Assembly: GCA_973895155.1 (NCBI GenBank)
Contig: OZ316891.1
Span: 16,705,651 to 16,769,650 of the forward strand
DNA from: Marsupella aquatica
Taxonomy: Eukaryota; Plantae; Marchantiophyta
Direction: 5' to 3'
DNA length: 64,000 nucleotides
Below are positions 665-48,702 of this stretch, one piece after another (position 1 is the first letter of the stretch; every line of letters begins with the position of its first letter). The position numbers and the translations under genes were made by a program. The notes beneath the pieces were generated by a model. The model was not told where the DNA came from and did no database searches. It saw only the letters and a list, made by a program, of their open reading frames with translations.

Positions 665-3600
665 TCAGTCCCCATCATCTGCAAGGACTGATGGCATTAA
701 GCCCTTCCCTTGCCGAGGGAAAATTGGAATGACAATGGACCATCCTCTCATGGTGTGCATCGGAACCATAATGCACTGATCCACCTGGCTAGGAAAAACT
801 ATGGTGTCACTAAACTCAGTCCCTGTGGGTGCAACTCGGGTTGTGTCCACGCGATAAAAACCACACTCATCCGCAACCATCGTAGCTCTCGCTGGAGGTG
901 ACATGATCGACTTGTGCCACCTCACCTCTAATACAGTGGTGACAAATGACCCAAAATGAACATCTGAATTGTCCACAACTGTCCCACAATAAGGAACCTC
1001 TACATCATCTACATCAGTCATCATGAAGATTCCAGAGTTACAAGTACTCTTCTTCATATGGTCCGTCCTCCAAGTCCGAAAGTGGTGCCCTGACTCATAC
1101 ATGTGTGTATGAGTCGTGGCCCACATCCCTGGCCCCCTAATGATGTTTTGTACATCAATGGGAATGGATGTAGGCCCATGCAGAGCCAAGAGCCTGTCCA
1201 TGCGCTCCAAAGCCCAGACACAAAAAATGATGCAATGCCACGACCTGTTTGCGCAACTCCCACTTGAAGCTCCAACCATGCACTGCCAAATATGTTGTCA
1301 CAAGATTGTTAGAGATTTGCAGCCTTCTCAAATCCAAATCCAAATCACAATCTCATACAATTTTAGAGTACCATACCTATACATCTCCCTCCAATCAGAC
1401 ATCTCCGGTCGATTGCCCAACACATAATTATGGATCTGTCGATGGAAGATGTCATCATCCAATGATTGCTTCTTGGCCGCACCCATCAATTGCAACCCAC
1501 CATTGTCATCATCTTGTGCCTCTTCCCAAGTCATGGGAGCCACGCTGTCCAAACTCCCTATCACCCCCAAGAATAGAAATTAAAGACACTCTGACATAAT
1601 GAACCCTGTTGCCATACTTCCCTCAGGGCGAGCTGGTTGACGCACCCAACCCTTGAGCACCTTCATATATTGCTCAATCCAATACATCCACCGGGCATGG
1701 ACTGGGCCCGCAATGGCAACTTTATCCACTAGGTGACATAGCAAGTGCATTTGCATGTCAAATAGTACATGTTGGGGGGAACACTCGCTCCAAATTGCAC
1801 ATCACTTGCGCCGTCCTCTCCCTCATCAAAGGAATGTCAGACTCCTTGATCTCCTTGCCACATACCCACCTACGAGGCACTCAAAAACATTCCAGGAATA
1901 AATATCTCAACCCAACCAATTGTGGGCTAAGATGGTTACCAATTCAATGCCTAAGCTTATTGATCTCCCTCTACCTAAGATATTCCTAATAACGTCGTTC
2001 TTTAAGACGTTCTGAAAGGTGGGTTCCTAGACGACGTTCTTTACGTCGTATGTGACGTAGTATTGTGATATTACCTAGTCAAGAGAGACGTAAATTATTA
2101 AGAGACAACGTATCTTTTACTAGAATGTCGTTTGAGACACCATAAATTTATGTTCCCATAACACCACAAAATCAAACTCTAAGATAATTCCAACCTGAAA
2201 ATGGAGCACAACTCGTACACTATGAGTCGGAGTAGGCGGCGCTCTCTAGAATCATCGCAACAACACAACACTGTAGGGAGCACATGCTGTATCAACTTGT
2301 GATAATCATGGGACTTCAACCCTATCGGGGGGATGTACTCATTCCTCGTTGTGCACCCACGGAATCCAGCTCCGTAATGGCTTGGGAACTTCATCTCACA
2401 AATCATCCCATTCACATCCTTCAGAATGTCTCGAGGCAAAATCCAAGGGGCTGGTGGTGTCACCCCATTACGTGTTGTCCAAGAAAGAGAATCAACTTGT
2501 TAGGGTTTGGGGTTTCAGGCAATTAATTGCATAATAATACACAATATCCTGGGAAATTCTTACAAATCCAGGGCTGATGTTTTCTCATGTACCTGATATC
2601 CAACAGCTCTTCACAACTCCTACATTTTTTGCATCCACTCGAACTCCACGAGTATCATTCTCACCATACATGTACTTCACCAAATTCTTTGCGACCACTT
2701 CAATGTGCATGGGGTCCAGTAGCCACCGGATCTTGAGCATCTGCTTGCACAACATGGTAATAAAGTGGAAAACTCTAGCATTCTGAGAGTTGATGAAAAA
2801 AACTATACACAATGATAGGCTTATTGTACCTACCCTCCAATAAGGCAAGTCCCACAATGCTGATCGTCGGTTTACTCCACAATCTTTGGGTTTGAGCAGC
2901 TTAGCCTCCACCATCTCTGCCATTTGAATTTGAGCTTTTGTTGAAGGCACATTAGGACATGGTCTCAACTCAGTCTGTGCCCAATGTCTTGTGTTCCATC
3001 GCATGGGGTCATCCATTGATAATCTCATCGTGCTGCCCTCATATGTGGTTTTGTGCAATAGTACTGAGTACCTCCCATGCAACTCAGGGCCACATGAAGG
3101 GCAACCTGAGTAACCAGCCACCTTCAAGCCTGATATTGTGCCCATGCCTGCCAAAGAAACCCCGTCATATTTCCGCAATAAAAGAAGCCAAATGTTCTAC
3201 ATAAAGTGATTTAGCACAATATAATTACATTTTGGTTGCTTTTCAAATTACCTGGCCCATCAGTGGTGCAATGGGTGATCATGACTCTCATGTTGAATGT
3301 CCTCCCATTGTCCAGTGCACGGGGGACATCTATTGTTGGGGCCCCATTTTCCCACAAGTCATGTAGCTCTTCATAAGCTGGGGCCAAGCAAACATCTGGA
3401 TTCTTGCAAGCCTCGGGACCGGGAATGATAGCTAGGAGGAGAACATGACCCTTTTTCATCGCCAACCATGGAGGGATGTTTTGATTTATCAAAAGAACTG
3501 GCCACATGGACTTTGGCTTCCGTCGCTACTTGTATGGGTTTACCCCATCTATTGCCAACCCCAATCAAACGTTCCATGGCTCTGCCGCAAACTTTGGCCA

Positions 3601-3757
3601 TGTGGCATCAATGTGCTTCCATGCTGGACTATCTTGGTGATATCGCATTATCCCTGTTGGGGATTTGGTCTTGGCATGCCAAGTCTGTAGGGAGGATAGG
3701 TGTCTTCGCCAGTACAGATGCTGCAATCGGGGTGTGATTGGAAAATACCTCAGTACC
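665..3757 (-). pseudogene. CACTA transposase (TnpD/Transposase_21, DUF4218- and DUF4216-like), downstream exons; frameshifted
   Basis: Motifs LRYFPITPRLQHLY, DSPAWKHID, WPVLLINQNIPPW, LLDPMHIE, GLKSHDYHKLIQH and HLVDKVAIAGPVHARWMYWIEQYMKVLKGWVRQPARPEGSMA (~1600-1760), separated by GT-AG introns. Confidence 0.9.
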
Positions 3758-3804
3758 TGAATGGAAGACAACCATGAGGAATAATTCATCGTTAACATAA
3801 AAAA

Positions 3805-3928
3805 TACGTTCACCAGAACTATGTTCACCAGAACTACGTTCCCCAAACATATACATTGTTCAAGATGACGTATTAACTATATGTTGACCATAACTACGTT
3901 CCCTAAATATATACGTTGTTCAGGACGA
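3805..3928. repeat. ~60-bp intronic minisatellite, left part; continues at 15283-15345
   Basis: Unit gatgacgtattaactatatgttgaccataactacgttccctaaatatatacgttgttca occurs at 3864-3922 and again, nearly identical, at 15286-15344. Confidence 0.85.
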
Positions 3929-4162
3929 GGGGAATTTACAAACGACAGCAAACAGATAACAGTAACAGCAAACAGTTACTGTTATCAGCTAAAAGAAACT
4001 GTTACCAATGAACAGTGTTTGGGTAGCAGTGAACACTGATCATGAAAAAAGTGGACTAAAGATGCGTTTCAAACTACTGGTATAGAAATGAATACGATCA
4101 AATTCGCATGAAAGGAAATTGGACTAGACGGAATCATGTATTTTACAACAAATAAAACCGTT

Positions 4163-5048
4163 TCACAATTGAGATAAACAAAATCCGAGACCAATATATG
4201 TCAAAATGCACAGGGGAAAAATAAAACTGCCATATACAATCGCAAAGTACATAACACGTTCGGCGCAGGTCCAAAAAATGCCCATATAAGTTACAACCTG
4301 TAGGCCTAGAAATCTGATATACAGAAGCCACGGTAGACCCCGGCTGAGGATTTCCAGTAAAACAAAAGCAGTGTTGGGCGCTAGCCAACAACTGCAGGAA
4401 AAACTACGGAATTCCTGAAGACGACATCCGGGAAAAATCCTAACAACTAAGCCGAGGGCGACTCCATCCTGAAACATCGAAAGAGCTTAAGCAGCGCTCG
4501 GCTCTAGCTTAAAGTGATCACCAAACTGAACAATGTGATGCCGTTCTTCATGAAAAACCGGAGGAACAAGCAATAAGTGATTGCATCTAGCTTTCAGAGT
4601 TGCAATCATCCTCCAATCCTGCCGCTTCTCTCCTCCGATTTTTCTTGAATCCAAGACCACGCAATCGAATGTATCTCTCAGAAGGACCCCAATGCACTGC
4701 CCTCGTATAACCTTCATTGGGAATGTTACTGTCCTCAAAGTCAACTCGCCCAAACATTTCTTGAACTTTCCTATCGATTGGCAGTACACCATCAATAGGA
4801 ACAGCCTGATGAGACGAGAACGTGCTTGCAAATGGGAGCGGAGGAGAATCGACGATCCATGGGATGTTCTTTTCTCCAGGACTAATAGCTTCATCATACG
4901 GTAGAGCGTGACGGTTCCGAAAAGTAGAGGTTTCAGTTTCCTCAGTCTCCATCCGTGACTTAAAAGAACTGAAATGGCTCTCTTCCGGACGCACACGAGA
5001 AGGGAGGAACGTTGCCTCCCAATCCATGAGCTCACCGTTTGTCTCCAT
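4163..5048 (-). pseudogene. Possible third, degenerate cargo ORF of unknown function in the MULE
   Basis: Overlapping minus-strand ORFs 4587-5240, 4487-5035 and 4163-4477 can be joined across a frameshift and a stop. No domain recognised. Confidence 0.35.
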
Positions 5049-5299
5049 GTTTAATGAATCCAATCTAGTGGCAACTTCCCCTCTGAAAAAATGCAAAAAT
5101 TGTCTGCAAAAGGCCCGCAAAGGTTCGAAAATGGTCGTGGGTCCAAAAGATCTTGTCCGGGAGGAATGTCTCCCTCGAAACACCCGAAATGTATCTCCAG
5201 AAAAGGGGCCGCAACCGGGCGTCTGTCCCAAAATAGTCACCTGTCCAAAAACTTGTCGTCCGTGACAAGTGTCATCCTTGAAAACCGTCGTTTAGGGTT

Positions 5300-5420
5300 T
5301 GATCCTAAAATGTCGTCTGAGAGAGATGCCGCCAACAAGAGATCCTAAAATATCGTGCGAAAAAGCTGTCAACAAGAGATCCGAATGTCATCCAAGAGAT
5401 CCGAAAATGTCGTCCGAATA
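5300..5420. repeat. Short tandem repeat (aagagatccKaaaatRtcgt-like units)
   Basis: gatcctaaaatgtcgtc / gatcctaaaatatcgtg / gatccgaatgtcatcc / gatccgaaaatgtcgtcc in tandem. Confidence 0.7.
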
Positions 5421-5748
5421 TAGCCGATGTGGGTATCTTTGGAAAACTAACGGACCTAAATGAAATGGCCGTTGGTATTCGAAACGTCTATTATACTATG
5501 TATTCACTACTATTTGTCTCATTATGATGACCGTTGGTAGGACACGACAAAGACCAAACGGCCGTGTTACACAAAGAAGAGCTGGAAATATTTACTTTAC
5601 GAATCACCATTTGGCGAGCGCCTGGCGCTTGTAAAAACACAAGGAATCAGACCTTAATTTATCAGGAGTCAATGAGAAGATTTGAATACAACTTGGTACT
5701 AGCGCCAGGCGCTGGTAAAAAATTACTCCCTAAACTCCTCAATACGTG

Positions 5749-8700
5749 TCACAATTCTGCAGATTCTGATTCGGAACCAGAATCTGAACTCTCGGATTTG
5801 TCCGTGGACATAGCCTCATCATCTATGTACTGGCTGCGGGAGAAGTCATCAACATAAGGATGTTTCATGAACTTCCTGTCAACACCCCTTCTTAACCGAA
5901 GACCTTTGTTTTCCCAGCAAAGCGTCCTTGTACCCTAGGCTTTCCTTGCGGCTTTCTCTGCATAGGAGGGAAGAACAAAAGGTTTTTCTGGTGTTTCTAT
6001 GTTGTGTCTAGCAACCCTCCTTCGCAGTTTGAAACGTCTCCTTGCATTCCACTCTGACCTGATCAAACAAAATCCAGCTAGTTAGGAGCCTTTCTCCAAA
6101 ACAACACAAAAATGTTATAAATTGACGGGAATGGAGAAAGAAGCTTACGAGTTTATGAACATTACTCGGAAGAGTCATCACTATCGGTTTCATCAGGAGA
6201 TCAACGAGGTTCTTCCTTTTCCTCCTCCGAGTCCCTTGTACCTTGTTCATCTCCATCTCCACCTTCACTGGACTCATCATCAGAATCAAAATTGAGTACC
6301 TACCAAAGCTTATCTCGCTTCTTTCTGTCGGCAATAGGAACAGGTGGAGGTAAAACCGCAATCTCTTTGGGAGACAACAAATCCATGAAAACCTTCGAAG
6401 TGGTTTCAATAAATTCTTTTCTATGTTCTATCCCGAGCACAAACCTCCCGGAGAAGTCTCCAGCAATGAAGGAGCTTCCAGCCCCAGCGGTCCAATCCAT
6501 AAAAATATCACGAGGTCGGGTGACAAGCTTTATGACAGATTGCATAAACCCAACAGACAGGCGAGCATTTCCAGAAAATTCCATTTGCGGGAATGGATCG
6601 AATTTGAGAGAAGGGAGTCCGATCAAATTGGTGACCGAGGGGTCCTCACTAATGGAGAGTGGACGGAATTTAGGGTCTTTGGGAATTTTGCATTTCCCAT
6701 TAATTCGACCAAATATGTCCAGCCTGAGGGTAAACATCTGCGGAAAGCAATCCCAAGTGTCAGTTGGCAACTCTAGGTTAAACGAGTTATATTTCAAAAT
6801 GCGACATTGTTAAGAGTACATAATTACATGACGGTCTGTCTTTGCCGCGTACATCGGGACAGACATTACAACATTATGCGTGCATATGCACTGAAATTTT
6901 CTCGATTCTTGACAGGCAGCAATGACTTGAGACATGGGATCGTACTCCCCATTGTGTAGAATTGCTAGGAATCCATCATCTGATAGAAATGGATCCATGG
7001 ACTTGAAAAAAGATCTAGCCATGGAGTGATCTGGAGTGTTCCATTTAGGAACCTTCTTATCTATGATCGTTGGTTTGAACCCGGTCGGTAGGTAAATGAA
7101 ACCGGCATCCACTCCAAACGATCTTTCTTTTCCTCCCAGCACAACACCCTTCTCTTTATATCCCGACTTAACGAGATCCTTCCCCCACTGCTCCACATTA
7201 CTAACCCAATCAGGTTTTTCCCCCTTGTTGAAAGTCGAGTCAAAAAATTTGGACATGCTTGTCTCAACCATGGCATGATGAGACACTCTAGTTTTGAAGT
7301 TTCCAACTTCACGTTGGACACCGGATGCTGCAACACTCTCCCTTGAAGAAGGTCCACCTTGGATAGCTCGCTTTCGTTTCTTCTTGGTACTTGTGGCGTC
7401 GACCGGAACTATTACTTTCCCCTTGTCGACAGGAGTAATGGGGTCCGATCAGGCTCCGGTGTTTGCCTCAGAAACTTCAGGTGTAGCATCCACTTTAGTA
7501 TCTCCTGTTCCCGCTATATTAGACTTCCTCCCTCCTAAATTATCAATAGGTCCTAGTTAGAACAAGTAAATCCGGAGTATTGAAACAAGCTAGCGCCAGG
7601 CGCTAACCAAATAAAAATCACTTAGGTCTCAACAAAGGCCTAAGAATCTAGAAAGAAATGTGAATTCGAATGACAGTTCTACCCAGCGCCAGGCGCTGGC
7701 CAAACCACGGAACATTATACTCACTTTTCCTCCCAGATTTTGTTGACTCGCTTGGTGCTGCTAACTCCGCTTTTGCTTTCACTTGAGGTTTTCGACTTCA
7801 GTCCACATGAACAATAGTCGTTTCACAGATACTTTGCAAGTCTATCACAGACTTGTCTACATCGTCTATCAGGCCCTGCTTCATGTCCGACACAATTTTT
7901 GCTGGTATGTGGGACTTTGAAAGCTTGTGGAATGCATCTTTCTCCCTTTGATCAAAAGGAGAATCCCATCTATCTGTATCTAGATACCATGGGCAGTGAG
8001 TTCTCTCCCATTATGTCATAGGTCTCGGAGTAAATATGCCCTCCGCTGGGTACATGGAGTACAAATCAGCTATGGCGTCATCCTCACTTATTGTAATCCA
8101 CTTCATGAAAGCTGCAGGATATGCCCAGAAGTAATTAGGTTTGGTTACCTCCATGTGCATGTAGAACCTGTAAAGATACCTTTTAGCCCGCTTCTGGTTT
8201 TTCTGGGTGTAGTCTTCTTTGTCTGGATACTTTGAAGGCCACATCGTGTGAAAGAACTTACTCTTCACAGAATCACCATATCTCTTGAATTCATTTGTAA
8301 CAAACTGAATGAGATCATCAAACGAACCACAATTCCACTCTTCTAATCTAGTTGCGGGCATCGTCTACTCTACTTCACGCAGACATGAATGTAACATGTC
8401 GACAGCAATTCCCTCTACACTATTCCAAGTGATCCAAGTATGACACCATTGTTTGACTGGGTCGTCGTTAACACTTGCCGGGTGGAAAAACTGTCTCCAC
8501 AGCTCAGGATTGCAATCTGCCACAAGTAGGGTGCTTTCCAACTTTGGGTCTAGGGCAGAAACAGCAGTGAACAATCGGGTGCGGTCCATTGTACATACGA
8601 CGGCGTCAGGCTTCTTCTCTCTCTTGTTTCCTCTGTGACAGCATACATTTCTGCACATGTACTAAGAAAATCTTCAATTTAAGACTTAACAAGGGCGTAA

Positions 8701-9954
8701 TTTTTGAGGACTTCACTGCACAGTCTTTGGTTGCGTCCTTCATCATGGCCGCATGGCGTTTGGACATCTCGCCCACCGACCAGGGACTCCCTTGAGCCTC
8801 GGCTGCCTCCATGTCAAGCTTGAATTAGTGAGAATATGACTTTATCTTATTCTCACATAAAATGTAAACAAGAGGTTCCTGTGGCATCTTCTTTGTATAC
8901 CATGACCCCTTCCGAATGCTCTCAAACTTCTTGAAATTAGCTGGATCAATCAGTTTACTGTAATACTCAAGGTCATGCGCCAGAATTTGTTTGATTCTAT
9001 CTGCATCGAGAATCCAGGATGGCTCAACAACGGCTTGGCCAAGCCTACACAAAGAGATGCAGCGAGTTAGAGTCGAAGTACAATTTATGTATAACCAGCG
9101 TCGAGCGCTCTTAAATAGAACACTCGCAAGATTCAAAGAAGGTACCTGAAAAGAACGAGAACTTACTAATTCACGGTGTGCATAGCTATCTCGATTTCAA
9201 TAACAGATCCCTTGTCTCCCTTAAATATTGTGCAGAGCACTCGAGGATGGTATTTTGGATTGTCAAGATTCTCCTCGGTAACAAGTGTCCATGACTACAG
9301 CCTGTGATTTCCATCAAAGACAGAGAACATCTTATCCTTCAGCACGAGAAAATTTGGATCGGCCTCGCATTCTGCCTCAAACTTCTCGTTCTCCAATTGC
9401 CAAATTGGATCCCATGATTGACGAATTTCCTGGGTATAGGTCAGAACAATTCCATTCTCATCCGTTGGCTGCACATAGAAACGCATTCCTATGGAGGAAT
9501 TGTAACCCATACTGCGAAACGAGTCTTTCAGCTTCTCGATGGAAGAGCTATCTTTCTGCAAAGTACGAACCACCTCCATGTGAACCAATCGGCATAGAGG
9601 GATTCGAGGCGGCTCCTTGTCAAATCCACGAGAATCCTTTCCAAAACACATGACATGTTTTGAGATGAGATCAGTCTCCAGGAGTGCGCAGACCGAAATA
9701 TTTTGGATCGCAATCGTGTCAAGGTTCTCCATCTTTCTACGTAGAGATTTAGGAACCAAAACAACGCTAACAGAAGTAGGAGGCAGCAGCTTTGTGGAAC
9801 GAGTTACACGACATGTATAAACTGAAGCAGTAAACGAAGACTGCGAGGATTCAGAATAAGCTTGCTCTTGGTCAGGAGCAGCACTATACCCTCTGGATGA
9901 AGAGGGGAATACCTCCATCATCTTCCTTCCAGAAGCGTACGAACTATCGTACAA
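5749..9954 (-). pseudogene. Multi-exon ParB/Srx-like domain + beta-class N4/N6 DNA methyltransferase-like (PF01555-like) protein; several premature stops
   Basis: N-terminus IPLCRLVHMEVVR...IEKLKDSF...FSVFDGNHRL*SW. C-terminal part VDAGFIYLPTG (motif IV position), FLSDDGFLAIL, FMQSVIKLVTRPRDIFMDWTAGAGSSFIAGDFSGRFVLGIE (motifs X-I-II), then an acidic/basic tail. Approximate introns 9045-9166, 7554-7724, 6738-6827 and 6059-6165. Confidence 0.75.
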
Positions 9955-10192
9955 TGAAATTATGGAACTCTAATCAACTCTCAACGTGTAATATATTCTA
10001 GAAGGAGGGTGGAGTTCAACGGAACTCTTCGATTAAAGCGAGAAGCTCATAAGTTTGGCGGATTCCAACGTATGTATGCAGAGAACTTAATTAGCAAAAT
10101 CAAGCGATAGAAGAAGCATAACACACACGGAACTCATAAGTTACCGTTAAATGTTACCGTTATGACCGTTTTCTTCCCTCACTCGGAATACT

Positions 10193-10603
10193 AGTGCCGG
10201 GCACTATTATAAACAAGTTCCCGTGAAGTAGATAATTTGGATGATTGTCATGGCAGCGCCCGGCGCTAGTAAACATAACAGCTATAGAATAGGTTTGAAA
10301 TGGTGTCTCCAGTAAATAAATTTTGTGAAAACAACCCCATATTTGAAGAAATGTTTAATGTTTTAATGGTTTTTGGGAAACATTACTTGCATCCTATACT
10401 AGCGCCCGGCGCTAGTGATAACGGGTATTTTTCATCCATAGTTTTAAAATAATTCACATTTTCATTGATCATTTAAATCAAATTATTCTATAGTATTGAT
10501 GGATATCTGGAGGGTTTTTCGTATACTAGCGCCTGGCGCTAGTATGAAATATCGAGATTTGGGGCATATTATGTTTGAGATATTTTAGTTAGCGCCAGGC
10601 GCT
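10193..10603. promoter_or_regulatory. Cluster of five AGCGCCNGGCGCT palindromes in the divergent intergenic region
   Basis: Copies start at 10193 (AGTGCCGGGCACT), 10255, 10401, 10528 and 10591. The 10528 copy extends to the 23-bp ATACTAGCGCCTGGCGCTAGTAT. Regulatory role is inferred. Confidence 0.65.
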
Positions 10604-10881
10604 ACTCAAATTGTTCCAACTATACAATATCTTAGAGTCTGTTAAAGATTTTTGTGGTGTCTTTTTTGGCATTATGTACGTGTCTGACATCCGGACTTAT
10701 CGGGGAAAAACAACAAAATTCATTTATGGCGCCAACGGATCCTATATCGACTATGTTTTATGTCTTACACAAATGCATATGTTAACGTGAAGTTCCCATG
10801 TTCGACTGATATAAGCTCCATATTACCATAGACTTTTCTTCCTCGAAACATTACAGTCCTCGTTATTTGTTTTCGATTGCA

Positions 10882-13800
10882 ATGTCTCGGTCCATCGTTC
10901 TATCCCGATTCGGGACTAGGGATATTGTGACCATCCCCGTCCCTGTGGAAGACACGTACAAGCAGGTCCGGGAGAGATACCTTTGCGGTAGATTTGATTT
11001 GAAGATGAATGATATTGAGGCCATTCTTCGAGAGCTTGAAACCAGTGATGACATCAAAGATGCAGCAACATTCAATGTGGATGATGCTGAATGGTTTTGG
11101 CATCTATACGCGGGGATTTCGTACTCACTTCGAGTAAGACACCATGAAGGACCGTCCAGTGTCCCCCAAGATCCATTTGATGTTGTTGAGATTTCTTCTA
11201 GTGAAGATGGGGATCACACTCCAAGTCCTACGTTGAAAATGAAAGTCCTGCAATGTGCTGTCGTTAAAGGTGAGACTCCAGGAAGCTCCAACCAGTTGGA
11301 GGTCGTGTATCGGTGCAGTGCAATGGATACGTTACTCAAATCCACTGGTCATAGCGAGTTATCGAGGTTCATATCAGCGGGTGATTTCAGACATGAGCAA
11401 GTCTCCTGTCTGCCAACTAAGTATAATAGGAACGTCGTGTTTGAATTGCCACCAATTGACAAGATGCTCTCTAAAGGCTCTAGGCTTAGGGACATGGACC
11501 GTGCCAAAGATTGCTACATTTGGACACGCATATTTCCAACTACGGCGAACGTCCAGCCAAAAAACTTTTGGCAATTTGGTAAGGTTACCTGTACGGGATT
11601 CATTGAATGTCGAAACAAGTCCTGCGAGTACTTCCAAAGGAAGAAGAAGGCAAATGCTAAGGCATGGCAAGGTACTCCAAAGCTTAGTGGTCAGTATGTT
11701 GTCGGATCTTTTATCAAAGAGGGCGGTGTTGTGTGTCATTATTGTGATCAGATTCCTTTTTGTGTCAAGTATTGCCTTGCCCATTTGTTCTATATGTACC
11801 CGCAAGTATTACTTGATGCGGAAACATGTAGTCATATGTCCCGCCTGGCGATTCATATAGGTGAGCATAACCATCCAGGTAGAAAAACCTTATGTAGGAG
11901 TGCGGAGAAGATGGTTGAGGATTTAATTAAAAAAATCATGAAGCCAATCCTCTGGCAAAACCAGTTGGGATCTTGAATTCTGCTACAGGGTCCATAGTGA
12001 AAGCTCTCTGCGAACATGTTGACGACATAGTCGATATCGAAGAAACTGAAATATGGAAGTCTTTGATGGTACTTTCCACTCCCCAAAAGTTTGCATCTCT
12101 TTGTCGGAGCGTTAGGATAGACCAAAAGGGTCGGGGTGAACTTGATTTTCTCTCGCAAATGCAAAAGAAGATTAACCTGTTGTTTCTCCAGAGGTATTTT
12201 CTCCCGGGTCAGGGAATTCAAGAGGACAGGCCTCACATCTTTAAATTGACCACAAAGGATCACGGTTCCGGTGTGGATCTTTTGAGACAGATGCAACCTG
12301 GTGGAAGACTCGAAGGAGCCTGGGTCAGTTTTGATGTGATGCAGCGTATCACAACCGATTGGTTTACTTTTAGCGCGCATGTCTACGACCATAACTTCCG
12401 TGCACTTTGTACAATTTTCACATGCGAGTTGAAAGGTGAAGACACTTAGTCTTTCGAAAAGGCTTGGAGAGTTATGATTGAGGTTTGCAAGGAGAATGGA
12501 TTACATGAGGTTGTCATCCAAGGGTTTATGGCGGACAATGCACAAGCTGGATGGAATGTTGTGCGGAATGTTTTTTTCGGTGGACACCCAGACCTGGAGA
12601 GGGAGCGCTCTGATGCATTTCACTTTTATCAATCTTTCCATCGGCATTCCAAGGAAGGAGTACTCGAAGAATGTCAATCGGAACATCGAAGACCTTGGGA
12701 GAAACTAAGAAACGCTCCAACGTTTGTGGTAGCCTATCGCGTGTCCCGAGAGATTGTGGTTTGGTGGCAATCAGGAAATTGTGTCCCTGGAAAGCTCATG
12801 ATGCTACAAAGCTGGATATCCTGGTGGGTTGTTCGATGGCGCCAATGGGGAAATTTTATTCGAGTGGTATGACATCCATCTCCTCTCTTGTCTTTCATTT
12901 CCATCAACTTTATTAGCGCCAGGCGCTCGTATGATTTGCTCGTATTTGAGTCCAACATGTCCATAAAGTTCCAGAATCATACTTGCAATTGTATTTCACG
13001 TATGTTATAAATACTTGTCGGTGTCAGCGCCAGGCGCTGGTAATACAATGCTAGTACTGATTATTGCATTTGGACTATGGCAGAGCAAAAGCGCAGAAGA
13101 AGGTGCCTTGATTCCGAACTGTACAGGGTCAGAATCAAGGCATGCGTCTATGAAAGCTTGGGCTACAAAGAAAAAAGTTGGACTTTTTTAAGCATGCAAA
13201 GTGGACCAAAACCGAGCCCTATCTCAAGTTGCGGGATACAGTGCATATCAAAAAGGGTTGAACAGAGGAAAGGGACCGACTATATGGGAATTGGCGTTCC
13301 GTTCCGCCGATCAAGCAGGTTCGCCGAGGTTATTTGAAGATGTGACCAACATGCTTCTTTCAAACGCGACGGACTTCGATTTGGAAAGAAGTACTCCCCT
13401 TAACAGAGATATCGTGACCAAGTCAATGAAGAGAAAGGGACATGCAACTGGGACTGCCTCTCCACAAGACTCCCACCGGTGACACCGTTCTCATAACCAC
13501 ACCAAATACTCGTGGTTTGAAAAGGAAAAACCTAAACAGAACTGACTTTGCCTCCATTCCCTCAAATTCTAATGATCCTGTGACAAGAGTGGTGAATCTC
13601 TCTGGTATGGACACACCAGATGGTGATACTGATTCACTGGACAATACCCCTCAAACAACCCGTACAACAAGATCCACAAAACCTCCGCTCAGTGCACTAG
13701 CCTCACTTCAGAATCCACTTCCACGGACGATTGTGCTAGAAAAGGATGTCCCTCTGGGGCAGTGGCAGTTGCGACGGACGTCCAAGTATGGAGCAGGTCC

Positions 13801-14614
13801 CTAGTGTAATGGGACACTCAATGGGAGTTCTGATCGCGATGAGTGTCGAAATCGTATCAAGAAGGTTGGCTCCCATTCGTCTGACGGTGTTGTTGGAATT
13901 GTCGTGAAGGGCCATCGTCTCTTCAGGGGCGAACCGATCTCCGGAATGATTTGGTTCTGCCCAAACCAAACCTGTTATAAGGGTTGTCCGCGTCGTGGTG
14001 TTCATCAGCTTCCTCCTCTTCCTAAAATTTTGCCTGTTCTGAATGGTACGAGCCTATCTCCTTCTGAAATCACGTTCCTCGAAGAGCAAGGACTTGTCTT
14101 AGCCCAAACAACAGGATTGAGTCGATCTGCGCCATCTTCGTTTGACCTCAGGATAAATGTGAACGTGTTCCCAGAAATGATAAGGTTTTTGGAGCCAAAT
14201 GTCCGGCTGGGTAGTCGGAATGAGAGGAACTCAAGACCTCGGTCTAATCTCATTGTGGGTCACACTAAGCGAATGGAGTCTGCACGACAAGAAGAGATGA
14301 GTTTGGATGGGGAATGGAATGTTTGGACTAGAAATGCTTTTGGAAAACAATTTCAAATTCGAACCCATGAGAACTTTCGATCACCAAACACGTACTTCGT
14401 GCAAATCTGTATCTTCCCTGCTTGCTCATGTGAGGACTTCTTCCTACGACATTCGCGTGGCAAGTCGTACATGCCTTGTAAACATCTATACTGGGTGTAC
14501 ATAAATGTTTTCAAACTTGAGGTTGAGGAGTCGACTCTTTGTAGCCAACCAATTTTGACTGTGGGCGAAGTCAGGCTTGTCTTGGAGAGGCAGAACTTGA
14601 ATGGCTTACAATAG
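10882..14614 (+). pseudogene. MULE-like DDE transposase with N-terminal GCM/WRKY-like zinc-binding domain and C-terminal SWIM finger; frameshift and stops
   Basis: CTGFIECRNKSC...CHYC...C...IHIGEHNHP; VSFDVMQR; FMADNAQAGWNVVRNVF; DAFHFYQS; intron ~12868-13083; PNCTGSESRHASM...GKGP; SWIM CSCEDF...PCKH. Frameshift in the A-run near 11930 and TAG at 12447. Confidence 0.8.
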
Positions 14615-15542
14615 GGGTCGAAACTTCCGTATAGGTCGTTCAATATAACGGATAGTCACTATTTTGTCTTTACCCAATGGATATGTTACTTGTTTTATTC
14701 AAAGATTTTTGGTTAGCGTCGGGCGCTGCTTCCAAAAATCTTATTTTTCTTGCTTTTTTATGTATGCGTGTAGTGTAAGCATTACAACATGTTTTATTGA
14801 AAATGTGTAAGTTGATATCATTCTGTTTTTATCTTTCAAGCCGCATTTATTCAATTATTCTGAAATAAATCGTTAGGTGGTGTTTTGTCATTTGTTTGTC
14901 ACGGTACTCGGTCCATTTAAGTGAACTCATTTTGATTGAGTTCATTTGGACACTACTCTTCACTTGTTTTGTGGTGGGTCCCACCCTAAGGTTCACTTTT
15001 TAGCTTGGACGAATAGTGATATTTGAATGAATGTTTCATTGAGTATAGTCCCCATACCATGTTATTTATATACCCTAAATAATTATTTGTTTTAAACCTA
15101 ATTCACTAAAGAAAAATTATGTGATTAGCGTAGTTTTTCATTCGGACCAAAGGGCTATGGTTGATGCAAAATTGGGAACAGGGAATCGCTTACTGGTAAC
15201 AGTTAAATTTGACTGTTAACAGCAAAAAAATTCCTGGTAACAGGTTTTCTGTTTTCTGTTTTCTATCATGGCTATCATACCCTAGGATGACGTATTAACT
15301 CTATGTTGACCAAAACTACGTTCCCTAAACATATACGTTGTTCAAGAAGACATTTAAAAAATGTACGTCATCTGCAAAGACGTAAAATTCAAGTGGGAGT
15401 CGTTTAGGGTGTTTACATCGTGTTGTAAGACGTACATATCATGAGGGCAATGTTAACGGACACAAAACGCCGTAAGGTACGACAAAAAATAGTAAGATGG
15501 GAGGTTGTGTATGTGGACATGTGACAGAGAGGATGTCATTAC

Positions 15543-16345
15543 CTTCTCAGCAATCTTGTCTCCAATGGTATCAGGACGATACCGTGGAAGGCCACATCGC
15601 TCAATCAGGCAATGGGTGTGGTCCAAGTATGTCCCTCTATACAAGATGCACCCAGCAGGGCACATATGTATAGTCTCTAAAGCCAATCCGATAGAAGATA
15701 ACAACTTCTTAGCCTCTCTCACACAACCTGGAAGGTTGTTAGGTTGGGGCAAGATTTTGTTGTGGAACAACGCAAAGAGTGCATCTGTATGGACATCTGA
15801 TCCATTGAAAACCCCCTGTAAATTTAACATCAAGAGTGTGGCTCCCAACCTGCATTTGCATTGAAAACCACAAAGAAACCACCTTTTTAATTAGTTCCAG
15901 GCATGCCATTGAGTATGGTCCAATTGGGAACTTACGGGTTTATGCACACCCTTAAGCAACATTACAATAGAAAAACTATAATGGAATGATTGGATTGTAC
16001 CGTGAGGTCGGGGAACCCTGGAATAGCGGAGTCCTGGATTTTGTTTCCAGTTGGTCCCAATCATCTTCGTCTAGTTCCATGATAGGAGGGCCATCCTCAG
16101 GTACATGAGGTCCAAAGTGGATGTGCACAAGGTGCGCAAAAGCATCCTCTACATCTTCATCAAAATTGCCATCATGTGCATCATGGTACTCATCCACATC
16201 CTTGTCCACATCCTCGTCCTCATGCACATGATCACTCTCAACATCTTTGTCGTCAGAAAAAGATAATGTGGCTCGCATGTGGAATGCACGGGCTAACTCC
16301 GTCATCATCGATGGATGAGGTGTAGGTGTTATATTTGGACCATCC
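15543..16345 (-). pseudogene. CACTA transposase upstream exons
   Basis: ILPQPNNLPGCVREAKKLLSSIGLALETIHMCPAGCILY...CGLPRY...IAEK joins in frame to VLRYFP at 3757. The acidic exon 16000-16345 ends SRTPLFQGSPTSR. Confidence 0.85.
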
Positions 16346-24289: not shown

Positions 24290-25859
24290 CGTCACTAGGG
24301 TATAGCCTATTTTACTTGTTGGACTTCATCCTCCATTTTGTACATCTTTGGCCCATAACAATATTATCTAATATGACACACTTTTCTCGGATTACAGCGT
24401 CTATACTATATGCATCTTGAATGTGTATGATCCCTAAACCCCAACCGCCCACCAAAATAAAACTCACCCCAATGTAGACTTGAAGCGTGTTTATAACCTA
24501 CAATAACGTTGTACGGCAGGGTCCGGGTGTCCATAATGTACCAAGGTCTGAGCCTCGTTTTTTCATTCACGTCGTTAGACCCATTAAACTTACGTCTTCT
24601 ACTTAGACATAATATACATTAACGTCTACAAATGAACTGTACTTTACCACACTTATAACAAGGTAACACTCTTATGTCGTCTAAAGCTATGTATTGCACG
24701 TCGTTAAAGACTATGCTTTCAGGTTACTTAGTTTCCGACAAGGCAACGGGCGTCGTTTGAGACGTCGTTAAGAATGTCTTTACGTCTTGTCAGACGACGT
24801 TACCTTAAGAAGGACATCTACATTAGCTCTGAACTGTAACGATGTACTAGACATCGTGAACATGCATAACCAAGTTTCTTGCGAGGCAACAAGCGTCATA
24901 TGAGACAACGTTAAGTACATCATCAATGACAACGTAGTTAACGTTGCCACATTGACGTCGAGGATACCGTCTTTGCGTTTATAGGTTCATACGTCGCGAT
25001 TAGCCTGTTGTAAGGCAACGTTAAGTTGGCTGAAAATTTAGTTGTGAGAGATTGAGAGAACATGGGTTGAAACTCCATCCTGGCAAGTGTAAATTCTTCC
25101 AAGACCAGACTGAGTATTTGGGCCACACTATCTACCCAAGGGGATTGGGTGTGTAGCAGACCAAGGTACAGAGGCCATTACATAGATTCCTCGTCCTACT
25201 AATGTGAGTAGAGTTTGTGCATTCTTGGGATTGGCGAGCTACTACAAGAGATACGTTAAAGGATTTAGCCAGCTTGCTAAACCTTAACCATACTCACTAA
25301 GTTGGATCAGGAGTGGATTTGGGGTGATGACCAGGAGCATGCCTTTCAAGAGTTGAAAGAAAGATGGGCATCATCCCCTATTTTGAGAAGACCCATTCGA
25401 GGGAGACCAGCTACACACTGATTGGAGTGAAGTAGGACTTGGAGCAATGCTGACTCAGAAGGATGATGAGGGGAATGAGTTTTCCAGTAGATCAAACAAT
25501 TCAGCAAAGGCTAAGTATAGCTCTTATGAGGGAGAGTATTTGGCAGCAGTGTGGGCTGTTGCACACTTTTGTTGTTACTTGTTTGGTAACCCCTTCACCT
25601 TGATCACTGATAATCAGCCTCTCAAGTGGTTAATGGAGTCTAACAAGCTTACAGGGAAGCTTGTTCGATGGACATTGTTGTTACAGGAGTATGATTTCCA
25701 GGTTGTGCATAGGCTTGGAAAAGTGAACTTAGATGCAGATGGATTGAGCCGCAATCCATGTACCAGTCAAGAGGATAAGATTGGAGCCAAATGGCATGAT
25801 GAGTCAGATAAGGATTGGTGTCAGGATGACATGCATCTGCCTTCCTTTGTTGGGAGTCA

Positions 25860-27332
25860 TGAAACTCAACTACATTAATACTTAGCTCCGGCGTCGCTAA
25901 CTTTGATGCCGAGCTCCCTTATGGTCCAGGCCCAGATAGGCCAGCCCGGGAGGACGTAGCATGGGGAAGACTTGTGGGCAACAAGACGTGGCACTAGCGA
26001 AGGCAAGGAGCCAAGCTGGTGACTCACACTAAGGACTTGGACTAGCTGAGAGCTGGTTGGGTCAAGGGGCAACAGGTCGGGCTCAAGGACGACCGTCCGG
26101 ACCTCCGGATGGACTTTGAGTTCTGAGGGTTTGAGTGTCATCTCCTCTTCGGCCCAAGGCCAATGGAGTTGATGCCATGGGCAACGGACGCTTGGGGAGC
26201 AAGTTATGGCCCGATCCGAGTTGGGCCAGTTAGGGGCCCCAAGCAACGATGAGGCTTGAGGGCCTAGGCGTGAGCACCGGGTTGGCCCAATCACAACGGG
26301 CTAAGGCACTCCGCTTGCGGATGCCTAACGAGAAAGTTATGGGCGTTGCCAGTTGGTGGCGCGCCCATTATGCGCGATAGGATCCGGGTTGGGGGCCAAA
26401 TGTTTAGGGACCAAAGCTGATCCGGGGGTGGCAGGTCTCTAGAAGCATATATGAGGGGAGTGGTGTCTCCTTGGGGGCTAAGGGCGAGCCAAAGTCGTGA
26501 GTCGCGGCGGTCGTGATACTAAGGAAAAATGTCAAACAGAAACGATGATATCTTCCCAATGGGAAGTCCGTTGGAGGACTTCTTGGGTGCGTTGGAAAGC
26601 TCTCAAGGAGGGCTACCTCCTCCTGAGCTCAGATGAGTCTGGGGGCTCCATGGGATCTTGAGGTTTGCGGGTGTTAACTCGCCCGCTTGCCAAATCCTGT
26701 CGAACAGCAATCAAGTTGCGTTCAATCTGCCAAAGGAGCTTGCGTTGGGGAGGCAAGGCCAAGTAGGTGTGGAGTTTGAGTTCCAAGGGTGCTTGGCCCC
26801 TAGACCATCAGTGGGGAAAACCTGGAGTTGGTTGCTAGAGTCGGGGCCAATGCTTGTCTCGACGTGTTGGGACAAGCTTTACGACAAGCTAAGCTATTTG
26901 GGCCATGAGCATGTTCTGGGGTCAGGGCGGTCAGTTGGTGATGGATAGGTACGAGGGGGAACCCGGGCCGCACCCAAGGAAGGAGCTGTTCTGGACAAAT
27001 AGTGGACATGGGTTTTGGTTCCAGCTTATGGCATCAAGAGGACCTATTGCTGACCTATTTACCAATGTTTGTTGAGCTTGAGTTAGGATGCTAGACTTGG
27101 CAAGTTCTAGATCCTAAAGGGTTGCTTGTGCAGACAGTGAGGACCGTTGAGTAGCGGTTGTATTGGAGAGCAAGTGCGACTTTGTATGGGAGGGGCCGCT
27201 AGCGGTGCAAAGGGCACTAGGTTGCTTGCTCGAGGTATTTCTGTGGAGGCGTTCGGGCACCAAGGGCACTTAGGCGTGAGTGCTGGGATTGGTGAGGGCG
27301 CTAGGTGGCAAGGTCCACCACTTTGGGTTCCA
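25860..27332. mobile_element. ~1.5-kb GC-rich LTR-like insertion between RNase H and integrase (ends approximate)
   Basis: Breaks pol colinearity and contains LTR-typical cataacttt/ttggaaag motifs. Candidate TGAAAC...GTTCCA ends, but no clean TSD. Confidence 0.45.
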
Positions 27333-28534
27333 GCATGCAATGGATTTGTGGACTCTACTTCATTGGATGAAGTAGATGATGAGTCTACAGATATGGATGT
27401 TGGTGAGGTTGTGATTGGACAGCAAGATATTCACAACGATGAGAGAGTGTTGGAATACCTGTGCACTGGTTCTATTGGTGGCAGTGTTGATGCCAAGGAG
27501 CGTGACAGGGTTCTGCAAAGAGCCAAGAGGTGTTGATGGGAAGGAAACCATCTTTTGAGAGTACTACGTGATGGTAAGGTATTGGTGGTACCAAAACCAT
27601 CACAACGAGTACATTTGGTGCAACATGCGCACAAGGAGTTGGGTCACTTTGGTGTGAAGCACACTTATAGTTTGCTGTAGACACAGTATTGGTGGCGTGG
27701 TATGCACACTCATGTCCAATAATTGATAGCTAAGTGTGTGGTATGTGATCGAGTGAGAGCATCCTTCAATGCTCCCACTCCCCAGTTGCATCCATTGCCG
27801 ATCATGGGTTTGGGGTATAGATGGAGTTTGGACTTTGCTGGTCCATTACCTCTTACCCAACAACATAATCGGTATATTTTGGTTATGGTGGAGCACTTTT
27901 GCAAATGGAATGAGCTAGTAGCGTTGCCAGATAAAGCTAGTGGAGGAGTTGCTGCCACATTTTTGGATCGTGTACTCAGTCATTTTGGAGCACTAGCTGA
28001 GGTGTTGACTGATCAGGGAACTAAGTTCTGTGGAGAGTTTGAGAGTTTGTGCGAGCAAGCTCTGATTGATCATTGTACTACTTCTCGTGACCATCCTGAG
28101 GCAGCTGGATTGGCTGAGAGAGTAGTACAAATTGTGAAGAGAGGATTACGCAAGTATGGCTTGCAAGTTGGTCATCTGGGAGATTGGGATCTCCAATTAC
28201 CTTGGTTAGCTATGGGCTACTGTTTCAATCGGCAAGCATCACTTGCATCCTTCTCACCTTATTTCTTGCTCTATGGTAGAGAGCTAGATTTGCCAGCAAC
28301 TATTTGTCATGATACTGCATCGGTTATGAACATGGATAATCTTGATGTTTGGGTCAAGGTTTGTTCAAAGAGGGCAAGGATTTTTCAGAGAGTCATGCCC
28401 ATGGCCTTTGACAACCTTGCCATTGCCCAACATCGTGATACTTTGCAGTATGCCACTATTTGTGGAGGAGGTTATCGTGCACGGATTCGGCAATTTCATC
28501 CCGATGATTATGTTTATTTGCAGTTGATAGCACT

Positions 28535-36600: not shown

Positions 36601-37193
36601 GCAAGGAAGTGCTGGCTGGTGTGCGCAGATAGTTTTGGGGGTTTGTTGGCTAACTTCCCAGTTGGATTGGTCGGGTTGCTGGATTCTGCGATGGGGAGAG
36701 AACCCATGAAAGTAGTGAAAATGTTTGTGCTTTATCAGATGCTATGGATGTTGTGGACTGGTAGGAATGAACATATGTTTCAGGTAGCGGGTACGCGTAG
36801 ATTTGACTTTAGGTTTTTGCTTTCGGAGGCCTCGGACCATGTTGCTGCTATTGGACAGGGGCTGCCCCGAAACAGAAGACATAGTAGATTACTTCGTGCA
36901 CGCAAACAGCTTAATGTAGAGAGAGTTGTATGGCTCAGCCGCAGTGATGGGTGGGTGACATCGGTCACCCGGTCTTGACATTGGTGCAGGTGGACTGCTT
37001 TTGGTGGTTCCGGTGTCTTGCCCCTATGGACTGATGTTTTCGCTACGGGGTGTGGGATGTTTCTTTTTTTTGTGCCCTTGGGCTGTACTGGTCTGGCTTT
37101 TGCTGGTTCTGGTGGGTGCTGTTACTTGACGTGTGCTGCTTGCTTCCCCCTGCCACGCGGTTTTCGTGGCTTGCTTATTTATAAAAAGAAAAA
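33653..37193 (+). mobile_element. 5'-truncated LINE (L1-like): endonuclease C-terminus, RT, zf-RVT, A-rich tail; frameshifted
   Basis: LDRFY...SDHDPV; KALGPDGL; RPLTMLNTIYK; LDFEKAFDRV; GVRQGCPLSP; LFADD; KYLG; GGLG; CKLC...HLFMLC; tail ataaaaagaaaaa. Confidence 0.9.
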
Positions 37194-37246
37194 CATATTC
37201 CAAGGAAAATTGACATTTCCTTCCCGCCAATGAAGGAATGAGTCCC

Positions 37247-37325
37247 TTTAGGTGTCACCAAGGAATGTTCCTATCCCTGAAGGAATGAGTCCCAGGGATA
37301 GGAACATTCCTTGGCGACACCTAAA
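37247..37325. repeat. Near-perfect inverted repeat, 33-bp arms and 13-nt spacer
   Basis: tttaggtgtcaccaaggaatgttcctatccctg ... cagggataggaacattccttggcgacacctaaa, one mismatch. Confidence 0.9.
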
Positions 37326-38049
37326 TTGACATTTCCTTCCCGCCAATGAAGGAAAAAATCCAGGGATTTGAAAGTTTGGGTGTCGCCGAGCAGTTGAATT
37401 CAAACGGATAGTATGGTAAGATAATCCATGAAAAGAGGAGGGGTTTTGGGGGGCTGCCTAATCTTTGTGGATGCCAAGAGAATTCATTAAGAATTCATGT
37501 CATGTGTTGAATGAATTGTCTTTTGAATTCAAGTTATCAGTTCATAGCTCAAAAGGTCATGTAGAGCTAGAGGAAATTTATCCTTGCATTCAGAGAGGAC
37601 TTCTCGATCGTCTAAGTATTGTTTTGCGGAATCTTTGCAGTAGCAATCTTGCAAATGGCAGAGAGGTTGCGATAAGTGGACGGAAGGAGGACAATCTTCT
37701 CTGTTGGTCTTGTCAAGTTGGATTGCGTCAAAATGTAATATGTGTGGTTAAAATGTGATGTTACTGATAGTCATTTTCAGGGTTGAAACGCATAGCTACA
37801 AGTCATCTAGACCCCATTCCTTGTCATTTTTTAAGGTAATTGGAAGCGTTGGCAGGGAATTGTTTTTCCTTAAATTGAGGTTCTTGTGGAAACGTGAAAG
37901 TCGACACTACAGTACCAAGTGCATCAACTCGATCTGGGAAGACATAGGTTTTTTGTCTTATTTTTGTGCAGATTCTTGTTAGCGCCTCGCGTAATTATTT
38001 TGGTATGACCATCTTTGTTGTGATATTGTTTAGCTTCTATGATCAGTTT

Positions 38050-46500: not shown

Positions 46501-46852
46501 TCGGTACTTGGTCGGCAGACGGCTCCACAACTTTGGGGAGAGGAAACGAAGTGGATCACCTGCAACTCCCAAAGCGGAAAGTTTCCCTGTGACAACCAGA
46601 TTTGCTGCTTCAGCCATGGAAGAGGATCCTAGACTAGGCAGCCCCACAGATCAAGACTCCCCTTCCACTCTGCCTACGTCTACTTCAGCAGGAAGTAGTA
46701 GTACTGCTGTTGTGGAGGATAAGAGACCAGCTGAATCCAGGGATGTCTTATTAAGGGCAGCAATACAAGAAGGTGAGAGAATAGGGATAGCAGGGGCATC
46801 TTTGCGGTTTCGCCATTCCACTGCTACTTCTTCAAGCGATGCTGACCAATAA
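40593..46852 (+). CDS. SUD1: ERAD RING-CH E3 ubiquitin ligase, SUD1/DOA10/MARCH6 family; exons 40593-40886, 41820-42551, 42865-43605, 44058-44269, 44402-44764, 45037-45194, 45378-45541, 45774-45920, 46175-46852
   Basis: RINGv CRIC...[96 protein letters not shown]; many hydrophobic helices. Splice sites keep the frame. Confidence 0.95.
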
Positions 46853-48360: not shown

Positions 48361-48702
48361 GATAATAATTGTTTTCAAACAGCAATTTTGTTGCATGAAT
48401 AACAATGATCTTCTTGGTACAAGTCTCATACAAAGTCATCTTGGATGACCACCATATCAAAGTCAAAGTTGCCTGACCTAGGCAAGTTCCTGATGAGATC
48501 CACTGCTTTGCTCTCCCATGGGCCATGAGGGGCCTCAAAAGGTCGCAAAAGCCCTTGAGATGCATGATAATGTGAGCTATTCTTCTGGCAAAGTAGCATT
48601 TCTTGGCATAGTCAATAGTTTACTTCTTCATGCCTGGCCTATGGCACTGCCTATTCAACAAAGCATCTTCTTATAAAGGCAGATGAAGTCTCTTTTTAAG
48701 AG

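Follow-up and report, generated by a model that had tools for sequence, protein, structure and literature searches.

Introduction

A ParB-like domain and a DNA amino-methyltransferase have been described together in an accessory gene of an algal DNA transposon. In the brown alga Ectocarpus, the element Sola1-1_Ec32 encodes a 1,104-amino-acid (aa) protein that joins ParB to an N4/N6-methyltransferase, is encoded opposite the transposase and was proposed to bind the element that carries it and to modify it; the same report suggests that such proteins may form a new class of accessory protein and points to cases in green and red algae (PMC12477816). Here we describe a similar arrangement at positions 5749 to 9921, minus strand, of a 64-kb stretch of contig OZ316891.1 from the liverwort Marsupella aquatica (the window, whose coordinates are used throughout). 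The gene is very probably an accessory gene of the transposon in which it lies. Its predicted product joins a ParB/Srx-type domain to a beta-class amino-methyltransferase fold whose catalytic motif is altered throughout the family, and the element carries a repeated 13-bp palindrome that may be the protein's binding site.

Like Sola1-1_Ec32, the Marsupella element is a large DNA transposon with a ParB-like domain and an N4/N6-type methyltransferase in one protein of about 1,100 aa (1,208 codons here, joined by predicted splicing), encoded on the strand opposite the transposase. Unlike that 21.5-kb Sola-1 element with its 4-bp target duplication, it is a plant element of 11.4 kb, probably Mutator-like, with an 8-bp duplication. 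The likeness is one of description and not of sequence comparison; the available account of Sola1-1_Ec32 mentions neither loss of a catalytic motif nor a palindrome, and no algal name occurred among the relatives that we looked up. In red algal Plavaka elements, PAG2 combines PF01555 with SET and PAG3 combines ParB with a 2-oxoglutarate (2OG) oxygenase (bioRxiv 10.1101/2025.02.11.637652). There too PF01555 and ParB are transposon-borne, on Chondrus Mutator elements as well, and inverted repeats beside the ParB gene were proposed as its sites; unlike those separate genes with other partners and tandem repeat arrays, the element described here has one gene and single dispersed palindromes.

How a transposon escapes DNA methylation has, according to the red algal study, been shown for VANC proteins only (bioRxiv 10.1101/2025.02.11.637652). 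In its own Mutator-like element VANC21 binds short motifs that lie in introns and between genes, and hypomethylation follows (PMC5735166). The Marsupella element resembles the Arabidopsis VANDAL elements that encode VANC in carrying an extra gene in a Mutator-like setting and a short motif gathered in non-coding sequence (introns, intergenic and terminal parts for VANC; 12 of 12 copies here). It differs in that the VANC motifs are 8-9 bp long, have grown by tandem repeats and belong to a protein whose function has been shown, whereas here the motif is a 13-bp palindrome, the domains are of bacterial type and the function is proposed. We saw no link of homology to VANC, Pfam scans of the gene's pieces, made without direct VANC comparison, giving PF01555 as the only credible family.

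Beta-class amino-methyltransferases of bacterial origin also occur as eukaryotic host genes. MpDN4MT1a/b of Marchantia have TSPPY, shown activity and no extra domains (bioRxiv 10.1101/2021.02.12.428880), and bdelloid N4CMT has SPPY, shown activity and a chromodomain (PMC8885841, PMC10406627). The family described here has the same fold; unlike them it is multi-copy, has no SPPY and carries ParB in the same protein. With bacterial ParB/parS clamps (KorB, Spo0J, Noc) and phage ParB-methylase fusions it shares a ParB/Srx fold, a GxxR-type box, palindromic candidate sites and the fusion to a methylase, and it is set apart from them by an insert of about 45 residues in the ParB domain, by spliceosomal introns and by the lack of any close prokaryotic or viral relative in our searches. 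Phage ParB-methylase loci and inactive DIRS1 domains have been listed (PMC4738411); the available text of that survey contains no land-plant family of the ParB-methylase kind, and the available texts of PMC10406627 and PMC12344493 hold nothing on a ParB-methylase transposon family. In a literature search mostly of journals open without subscription, no title concerned a fern or liverwort gene of this type. What appears to be new is thus the occurrence in land plants, the Mutator-like carrier, the family-wide motif loss and a defined parS-like candidate site, the architecture itself having already been published for algal transposons.

Results and Discussion

A decayed gene with five predicted introns

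The gene model comprises the following features.

5749 to 9921, minus strand: ParB-like and beta-class methyltransferase-like accessory gene, a pseudogene (splice model; collinear with Riccia and Adiantum proteins)
9045 to 9166, minus strand: intron 1, 122 nucleotides (nt), phase 2 (same codon position in a related locus, L001; the open frames of four relatives stop here)
8662 to 8716, minus strand: intron 2, 55 nt, weak donor (frame change relative to a Riccia protein; a 61-nt alternative or a frameshift is possible)
7553 to 7724, minus strand: intron 3, 172 nt, containing two palindromes (splice signals and frame only)
6738 to 6827, minus strand: intron 4, 90 nt (missing in annotated liverwort proteins; same position in a second copy, with a diverged interior)
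6059 to 6165, minus strand: intron 5, 107 nt (donor and flanking exons common to the second copy)
38052 to 39297, plus strand: second copy of the gene's 3' half, 5'-truncated and diverged (49-66% protein identity in three pieces; DNA alignment)

Six exons on the minus strand (9921-9167, 9044-8717, 8661-7725, 7552-6828, 6737-6166 and 6058-5749) sum to 3,627 nt, or 1,208 codons, and contain 10 in-frame internal stops; the copy in the window is a dead pseudogene. All five introns are GT-AG, and their predicted removal brings every motif into one frame. A preliminary description of this locus had proposed an intron-containing, transposon-borne gene with both domains at 5749 to 9954. The motifs that it quoted were all found in place on the minus strand, and its spliceosomal introns are supported. 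Its start at 9954 is a TTG; the ATG at 9921 is the more likely start, favoured by a relative that aligns from 9933 onward at 65% identity. It had not recorded the 10 stops, the degenerate motif IV, the ends of the element, the transposase or the palindromes.

The number of stops corresponds to a divergence of roughly 6-8% for this copy (range 3-15%). Two other accounts of the stops were rejected: they could not all be assigned to introns, as 10 lie in exons and several align with residues of relatives, and organelle-type U-to-C editing fails because at least one stop stands for Tyr or Phe. The second copy at 38.0-39.2 kb also has introns 4 and 5, with exons 49-66% identical and different intron interiors. 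CpG is strongly depleted in the second copy (0.32), which may have an extra intron acceptor near 38056.

A ParB/Srx-type domain at the N-terminus

Two regions make up the first half of the protein.

9169 to 9612, minus strand: ParB/Srx-fold domain with PPRIPLCR, a box-I-like Arg in VVRTL, DGNHR, MHTVN and a helical insert of about 45 residues (alignment, fold and atlas features)
7725 to 9044, minus strand: middle region, exons 2 and 3, of no family, candidate DNA-binding part (kept in Riccia, weakly in Adiantum)

The preliminary description had read DGNHRL (9315-9298, minus strand) as the GxxR-type box of ParB, and the box proved intact. Across the 16 rows of the domain alignment, 6 of which are near-identical fern copies, the upstream Arg, the D-G-N and the downstream Asn are invariant (16 of 16), and the Arg of GxxR is present in at least 90%; we take these to be the nucleotide-site residues that are labelled box-I Arg, GxxR and downstream Asn in ParB. 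The sequence thus holds both the nucleotide-site residues of a ParB clamp and, nearby, palindromic candidate sites. Profile methods saw little of this: the window's domain had no match in Pfam, PHROG or NCBIfam, two relatives touch the DGQHR profile at E 0.06, and ParB was also missed when PDB sequences were searched with profiles.

The assignment comes from structure prediction. Searches with the ParB part found six near-length and four long relatives, one of which, P0094 (62% identical to the window's domain), was modelled at a predicted local distance difference test (pLDDT) score of 77.5. Compared with 48,161 chains, this model matched 9 at Z>=2, and all 9 have the ParB/Srx fold, from KorB (Z 5.5; root-mean-square deviation 3.2, 94 aligned), PadC (5.4) and sulfiredoxin (4.9) to Spo0J at the bottom (2.4), counting Atu1540, which presumably belongs to this fold. 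Foldseek placed ParB-CDP and Noc on top, and many of the named viral matches in the fold search were ParB-type; among 30 atlas matches of P0094, 8 carried DUF3723, 2 carried ParB_N and the other 20 bore no name. A ParB/Srx fold is therefore well supported by these predictions, through the agreement of the matches and not by one strong score. In the chain comparison the fold is common to Srx, SerK and SbnI, proteins that use nucleotides other than CTP, and it is by analogy with ParB that we infer CTP use for this domain. A first model, built from 6 sequences (pLDDT 49), matched 44 chains at Z 2-3.3, which were unrelated helical proteins, and was discarded. Fungal DUF3723 (PF12520) clusters resemble the ParB-like domain of P0094, and a literature search joining ParB with DUF3723 returned no paper. 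The middle region is matched over model residues 377-606 by the Riccia protein P0099 (E 8.6e-12).

A methyltransferase fold with an altered catalytic motif

6370 to 7150, minus strand: beta-class amino-methyltransferase fold, with a degenerate motif IV, YLPT (7094-7083), and motifs X-I-II kept (6500-6426) (profile and alignment)

On the minus strand the motifs lie at 7094-7080 (YLPTG), 6986-6972 (LSDDG), 6500-6477 (MDWTAGAG) and 6437-6426 (LGIE). PF01555 matches the window's piece at E 8e-4 and 19.8 bits, under the curated cut-off of 26.7, and two fern relatives at 42.2 and 40.4 bits, over it; other sub-cut-off Pfam matches in the window were treated as chance and ignored. Of the two profile families expected from the preliminary description, PF01555 was accordingly recovered, below threshold for the window and above it for the ferns, and ParB was not recovered for the window's domain. 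DpnA (1.2e-8) and CcrM (1.3e-7) head the 11 PDB sequences that a 31-row family profile matched at E<=1; 10 of the 11 are amino-methyltransferases, which we class as beta. The relative P0057 aligns to PF01555 positions 2-212 and CcrM aligns over family-profile positions 105-289; from the DpnA and CcrM matches, the order IV...X-I-II, which had been read earlier as the beta permutation, is therefore real.

Motif IV is covered by 43 of 88 aligned rows, and the canonical [DNS]PP[YFW] occurs in none of them: Pro fills position 3 in 41 rows, Asp (DFPS in Adiantum; DLPS, DMPS or DPPT in Riccia-type proteins) stands at position 1 in 7 rows and Ser in 3, and no row has an aromatic residue at position 4. 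On the S-adenosylmethionine (SAM) side, motif I (DWTAGAG) keeps D or N in 49 of 49 rows and its last G in 44 of 49, and motif II (LGIE) keeps its acid in 45 of 46; a W-N pair downstream of motif IV is near-invariant (W 41/46, N 43/46). The window's own group takes in 24 of the 31 rows of a tree (support 87/96; not starred), and in most of its members position 1 is A, Y, F or C. This tree, built from 31 of the 43 motif-IV rows over 109 columns and rooted at its midpoint, is too weak for the order of motif changes. From these alignments the catalytic motif is altered family-wide and the SAM-binding motifs are kept.

The preliminary description had likened the gene to the DN4MT1 and N4CMT writers of N4-methylcytosine (4mC) and suggested that the family could be a vehicle for such genes. 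Neither idea is supported: judged by motif, this is not a writer of that type, and N4CMT chains in the PDB match the family profile at E 0.025-0.027, below the bacterial enzymes at about 1e-8, so that we see no sign of a vehicle. Because motif IV is altered across the family, writing of 4mC or N6-methyladenine (6mA) is not to be assumed. An alternative, which follows the line of the preliminary description, is that intact copies nevertheless write 4mC or 6mA through a non-standard active site, with ParB loading on the palindromes and the enzyme marking the element. The conserved SAM side, the Asp kept at position 1 in 7 of 43 rows and the W-N pair, which could provide a stacking aromatic, all speak for such an enzyme, as do the CCNGG core of the palindrome, which resembles bacterial 4mC targets such as CCSGG (PMC8885841), and the prediction that the Ectocarpus protein makes 4mC or 6mA (PMC12477816). 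The forms of the fern and of Riccia that bear Asp would be the likeliest to act in this way. Set against it are the missing fourth-position aromatic, the residues at position 1 in the window's own group, the loss of N4CMT activity when SPPY is changed to APPA (PMC8885841) and the precedent of dead methyltransferase domains on transposons such as DIRS1 (PMC4738411). On balance we regard an active writer as rather unlikely.

A fused, multi-copy family in liverworts and ferns

A search of 1.84 billion representative sequences with the methyltransferase part returned 85 proteins at E<=0.001; 84 belong to the family and are for the most part fragments of one exon, while the remaining protein, which carries several methylases, is unrelated. 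The closest relatives of the gene are 64-74% identical; named relatives come from liverworts and ferns; the ten matches looked up include three from Calypogeia fissa and three from Riccia sorocarpa. The 748-residue single-frame read-through, used as a query, had no match among 7,996 candidates of 411-1,309 aa; shorter queries and profile queries recovered the relatives. In the fern Adiantum capillus-veneris the annotated proteins are 1,001-1,066 aa long and form one 23-member cluster at >=90% identity and one singleton, and the 15 listed members of the cluster lie on 9 chromosome-size contigs. From its sequences, this cluster behaves like a recently spread element. All 7 full-length Adiantum proteins examined match both ends of our model, as expected if ParB and methyltransferase form one gene, which the preliminary description had maintained; these being gene predictions, separate transcripts for the two parts appear unlikely.

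The ParB part had no relative among 90 candidates in viral contigs or 19 in prokaryotic genomes, and its 4 matches to phage records were all at E>=4, none significant. An Adiantum protein matches phage methylases over its last ~240 residues only, at about 25% identity (653 records, E<=10), and a metagenome scan gave 1 locus out of 321 candidates. P0084 and P0091 of Riccia sorocarpa bear the UniRef name "Trimethylguanosine synthase"; their best Pfam match is PF01555, and they are probably misannotated. P0098, a protein of 156 aa whose cluster has 3 members, passes from the beginning of the ParB domain straight to methylase motifs X-I and looks like an internally deleted derivative.

These data bear on whether the gene might be neutral cargo, either a host or foreign fragment captured in the manner of a Pack-MULE or two separate genes that happen to be adjacent. 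The window copy is dead and the annotated liverwort proteins retrieved are partial (methylase part alone or, in Riccia, ParB and middle region alone), as cargo would allow. Against this stand the 7 of 7 fused Adiantum proteins, the joining of the two ends in P0098, as a deletion derivative would have it, the absence of any single-copy conserved host version among the named matches and the same layout on an unrelated algal transposon (PMC12477816). Neutral cargo is thus highly improbable.

The carrier element

The gene lies inside an element with the following parts.

3929 to 15282, unstranded: complete DNA transposon copy, 11,354 bp, with GGG...CCC termini, sitting in a CACTA-type element (ends and duplication read from sequence)
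3921 to 3928, plus strand: left target-site duplication CAGGACGA (6 of 8 positions match the right copy; both differences C/T)
15283 to 15290, plus strand: right target-site duplication TAGGATGA (read from sequence)
3929 to 4007, plus strand: left terminal inverted repeat, imperfect (best arm 3976-4007 pairs with 15194-15225, 32 nt, 78%)
15194 to 15282, minus strand: right terminal inverted repeat, imperfect (repeat search and pairwise alignment)
10882 to 14614, plus strand: decayed transposase-like gene with stops and frameshifts, probably Mutator-like (open frames; motifs judged by eye)

Pairwise alignment carried the inverted arms out to the GGG...CCC ends. Between these ends and the 8-bp duplication the ParB-methylase gene (minus strand) and the transposase-like gene (plus strand) lie head-to-head at one locus, in keeping with the transposon origin proposed earlier. 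A single repeat unit lies on both flanks (3864-3928 and 15286-15350, 92% over 65 nt), and its continuation across them is what insertion of the ParB element into an older CACTA element would be expected to leave; the left flank holds Transposase_21 fragments (E 5e-4 and 2e-3, Pfam). The host CACTA-type element is itself decayed (665-3876 and 15453-16344, minus strand) and includes these Transposase_21 fragments.

By eye, the transposase-like gene has a Cys/His-rich N-terminal part, two Asp motifs, a D-x-x-H, a Glu motif and a C-terminal SWIM-like finger, a layout that we take to be that of Mutator. Its sole profile match is SWIM at E 1.4-1.7, which is not significant, and Pfam scans gave no match to MULE; from the motifs a Mutator-like class is probable. 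An 8-bp duplication is also compatible with hAT and Zisupton. Mutator-like elements (MULEs) have target duplications of 8-11 bp (PMC6446971), and the present element has inverted ends, although imperfect, and 8 bp matching at 6 positions. CpG retention in the element is 0.78, compared with 0.32-0.58 for five other stretches of repeats. Within the element no gene for a terminase or a ParA-like protein was recognised. An open frame of ~150 codons at 4587-5048 (minus strand), in the left part of the element, has no Pfam match and may represent a third gene. Immediately upstream of it are short direct repeats of 20 nt (5301-5417).

A dispersed palindrome confined to non-coding sequence

The element is strewn with copies of one 13-bp palindrome.

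5617 to 5713, unstranded: palindromes AGCGCCNGGCGCT at 5617 and 5701, downstream of the stop codon (motif scan, as for the next four lines)
7592 to 7697, unstranded: palindromes at 7592 and 7685, in intron 3
10193 to 10603, unstranded: palindromes at 10255, 10401, 10528 and 10591 (perfect) and 10193 (two mismatches), in the head-to-head spacer
12915 to 13038, unstranded: palindromes at 12915 and 13026, in a predicted transposase intron
14715 to 14727, unstranded: palindrome with one mismatch, downstream of the transposase

Ten perfect copies of AGCGCCNGGCGCT and one with a single mismatch occur in the 64 kb, all inside the element (11 vs 0.05 expected at up to one mismatch; none of 100 shuffles reaches 11), and the remaining 52.6 kb contain none at that threshold. 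Including the two-mismatch copy at 10193, all 12 lie outside predicted exons, which make up 63% of the element (P ~2e-5 for 11 palindromes all being non-coding): the ParB gene has two behind it and two within intron 3, the spacer holds five, and the transposase has two in its intron and one behind it. Across 144 sites of the motif there are 3 mismatches, where the stop count would predict about 9-11 (P 0.003-0.02, but 0.2-0.37 at its lower bound); this apparent conservation above background is too weak, and too biased by the way copies are found, to serve as support. A decayed palindrome lies at 39283, the matching place downstream of the second gene copy, itself only ~50% identical. Each perfect copy contains two CG sites and a central CHG site, a content that fits a contest over cytosine methylation and proves nothing. 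A three-mismatch palindrome occurs at 37980, near the second gene copy.

The palindromes could instead serve transposition. The protein might be a MURB-like helper, a clamp that tethers or compacts the element or excised circles, with the palindromes perhaps being transposase sites and the methylase fold a structural remnant of no silencing role. Of the 12 palindromes, five occupy the spacer that separates the genes and two the transposase intron, the Cys/His-rich part of the transposase could bind DNA, and Mutator has second open reading frames needed for integration (PMC6446971). Transposase sites would, however, be expected at the ends of the element, where palindromes are missing (at up to one mismatch, none before 5617 or after 14727), and conservation of the SAM-side motifs across at least 84 clusters at 50% identity is not what a pure remnant would predict. 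We therefore hold a helper of this kind to be unlikely.

A proposed role in protecting the element

The reading that we prefer is that, in intact copies, the accessory protein, rather than the transposase, would read the palindromes, with the middle region supplying site specificity. Bacterial ParB closes on CTP and spreads from parS; by analogy, and considering its conserved Arg, DGNHR and Asn, the ParB-type domain would close on CTP and slide from the palindromes along the element. The methylase-like domain would bind SAM and contact bases, probably without carrying out the usual methylation, and, being carried along the element, may shield it from host cytosine methylation much as VANC does by its own means. 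We lean towards binding of the palindromes by the protein of intact copies, and would give the mechanism as a whole (palindrome loading, clamp spreading and a methylase-like domain that hinders host 5-methylcytosine, 5mC) about an even chance of being right. A stronger version, in which liverwort and fern transposons run a bacterial-style ParB/parS system in the plant nucleus, with a CTP-gated clamp whose repurposed methylase blocks or replaces 5mC independently of VANC and which is still spreading in the fern, is at present doubtful.

Several observations weigh against the proposed role. The fold Z-scores are middling (5.5 at most), no Foldseek match was obtained at E 0.001, and one of five models was confident, the other four having pLDDT values of 46-57; the confident one is that of a relative and not of the window's own domain. 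Pfam and PHROG scans of the middle region gave no helix-turn-helix or other DNA-binding family, and the transposase was classed from motifs judged by eye. Only in one window did gene, transposase and palindrome occur together; the 1.2 kb of L001, which include 576 bp ahead of the first Met of its gene, contain no exact palindrome. Constraint on exon sequence would in itself be enough to predict non-coding placement, and the higher CpG retention of the element may reflect only its age.

Even so, the ParB-methylase accessory genes described in algae now extend to land plants, with a candidate binding site of clear pattern, and Adiantum capillus-veneris, with its many near-identical copies, is a source of intact proteins. 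If the proposal is correct, a CTP clamp at work on plant chromatin would be new to biology and might be turned into a tool that protects chosen sites from silencing, and eukaryotes would possess a sliding-clamp anti-silencing device independent of VANC.

Other features of the window

The window as a whole is eukaryotic and plant-like, with CACTA-type transposase fragments, a gypsy-type integrase core, a LINE-type (long interspersed nuclear element) reverse transcriptase and a RINGv gene. The last is an intron-containing host gene at 40524-46852 (plus strand) with a RINGv domain (E 2.4e-17) and membrane segments, which we take to resemble MARCH6/SUD1 ubiquitin ligases. A decayed integrase region of a long terminal repeat (LTR) retrotransposon lies at 25387-28571 (plus strand), and the LINE-type reverse transcriptase, with zf-RVT, at 33655-36978 (plus strand); just beyond the LINE end, at 37207-37361, a 38-nt inverted repeat (92%) is nested between two 39-nt direct repeats. 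Five direct repeats of ~40 nt, spaced at 43-64 nt and each with an internal TCTAGA-type inverted motif, occupy 48701-48941, and a 17-nt tandem repeat of about five units lies at 61093-61184.

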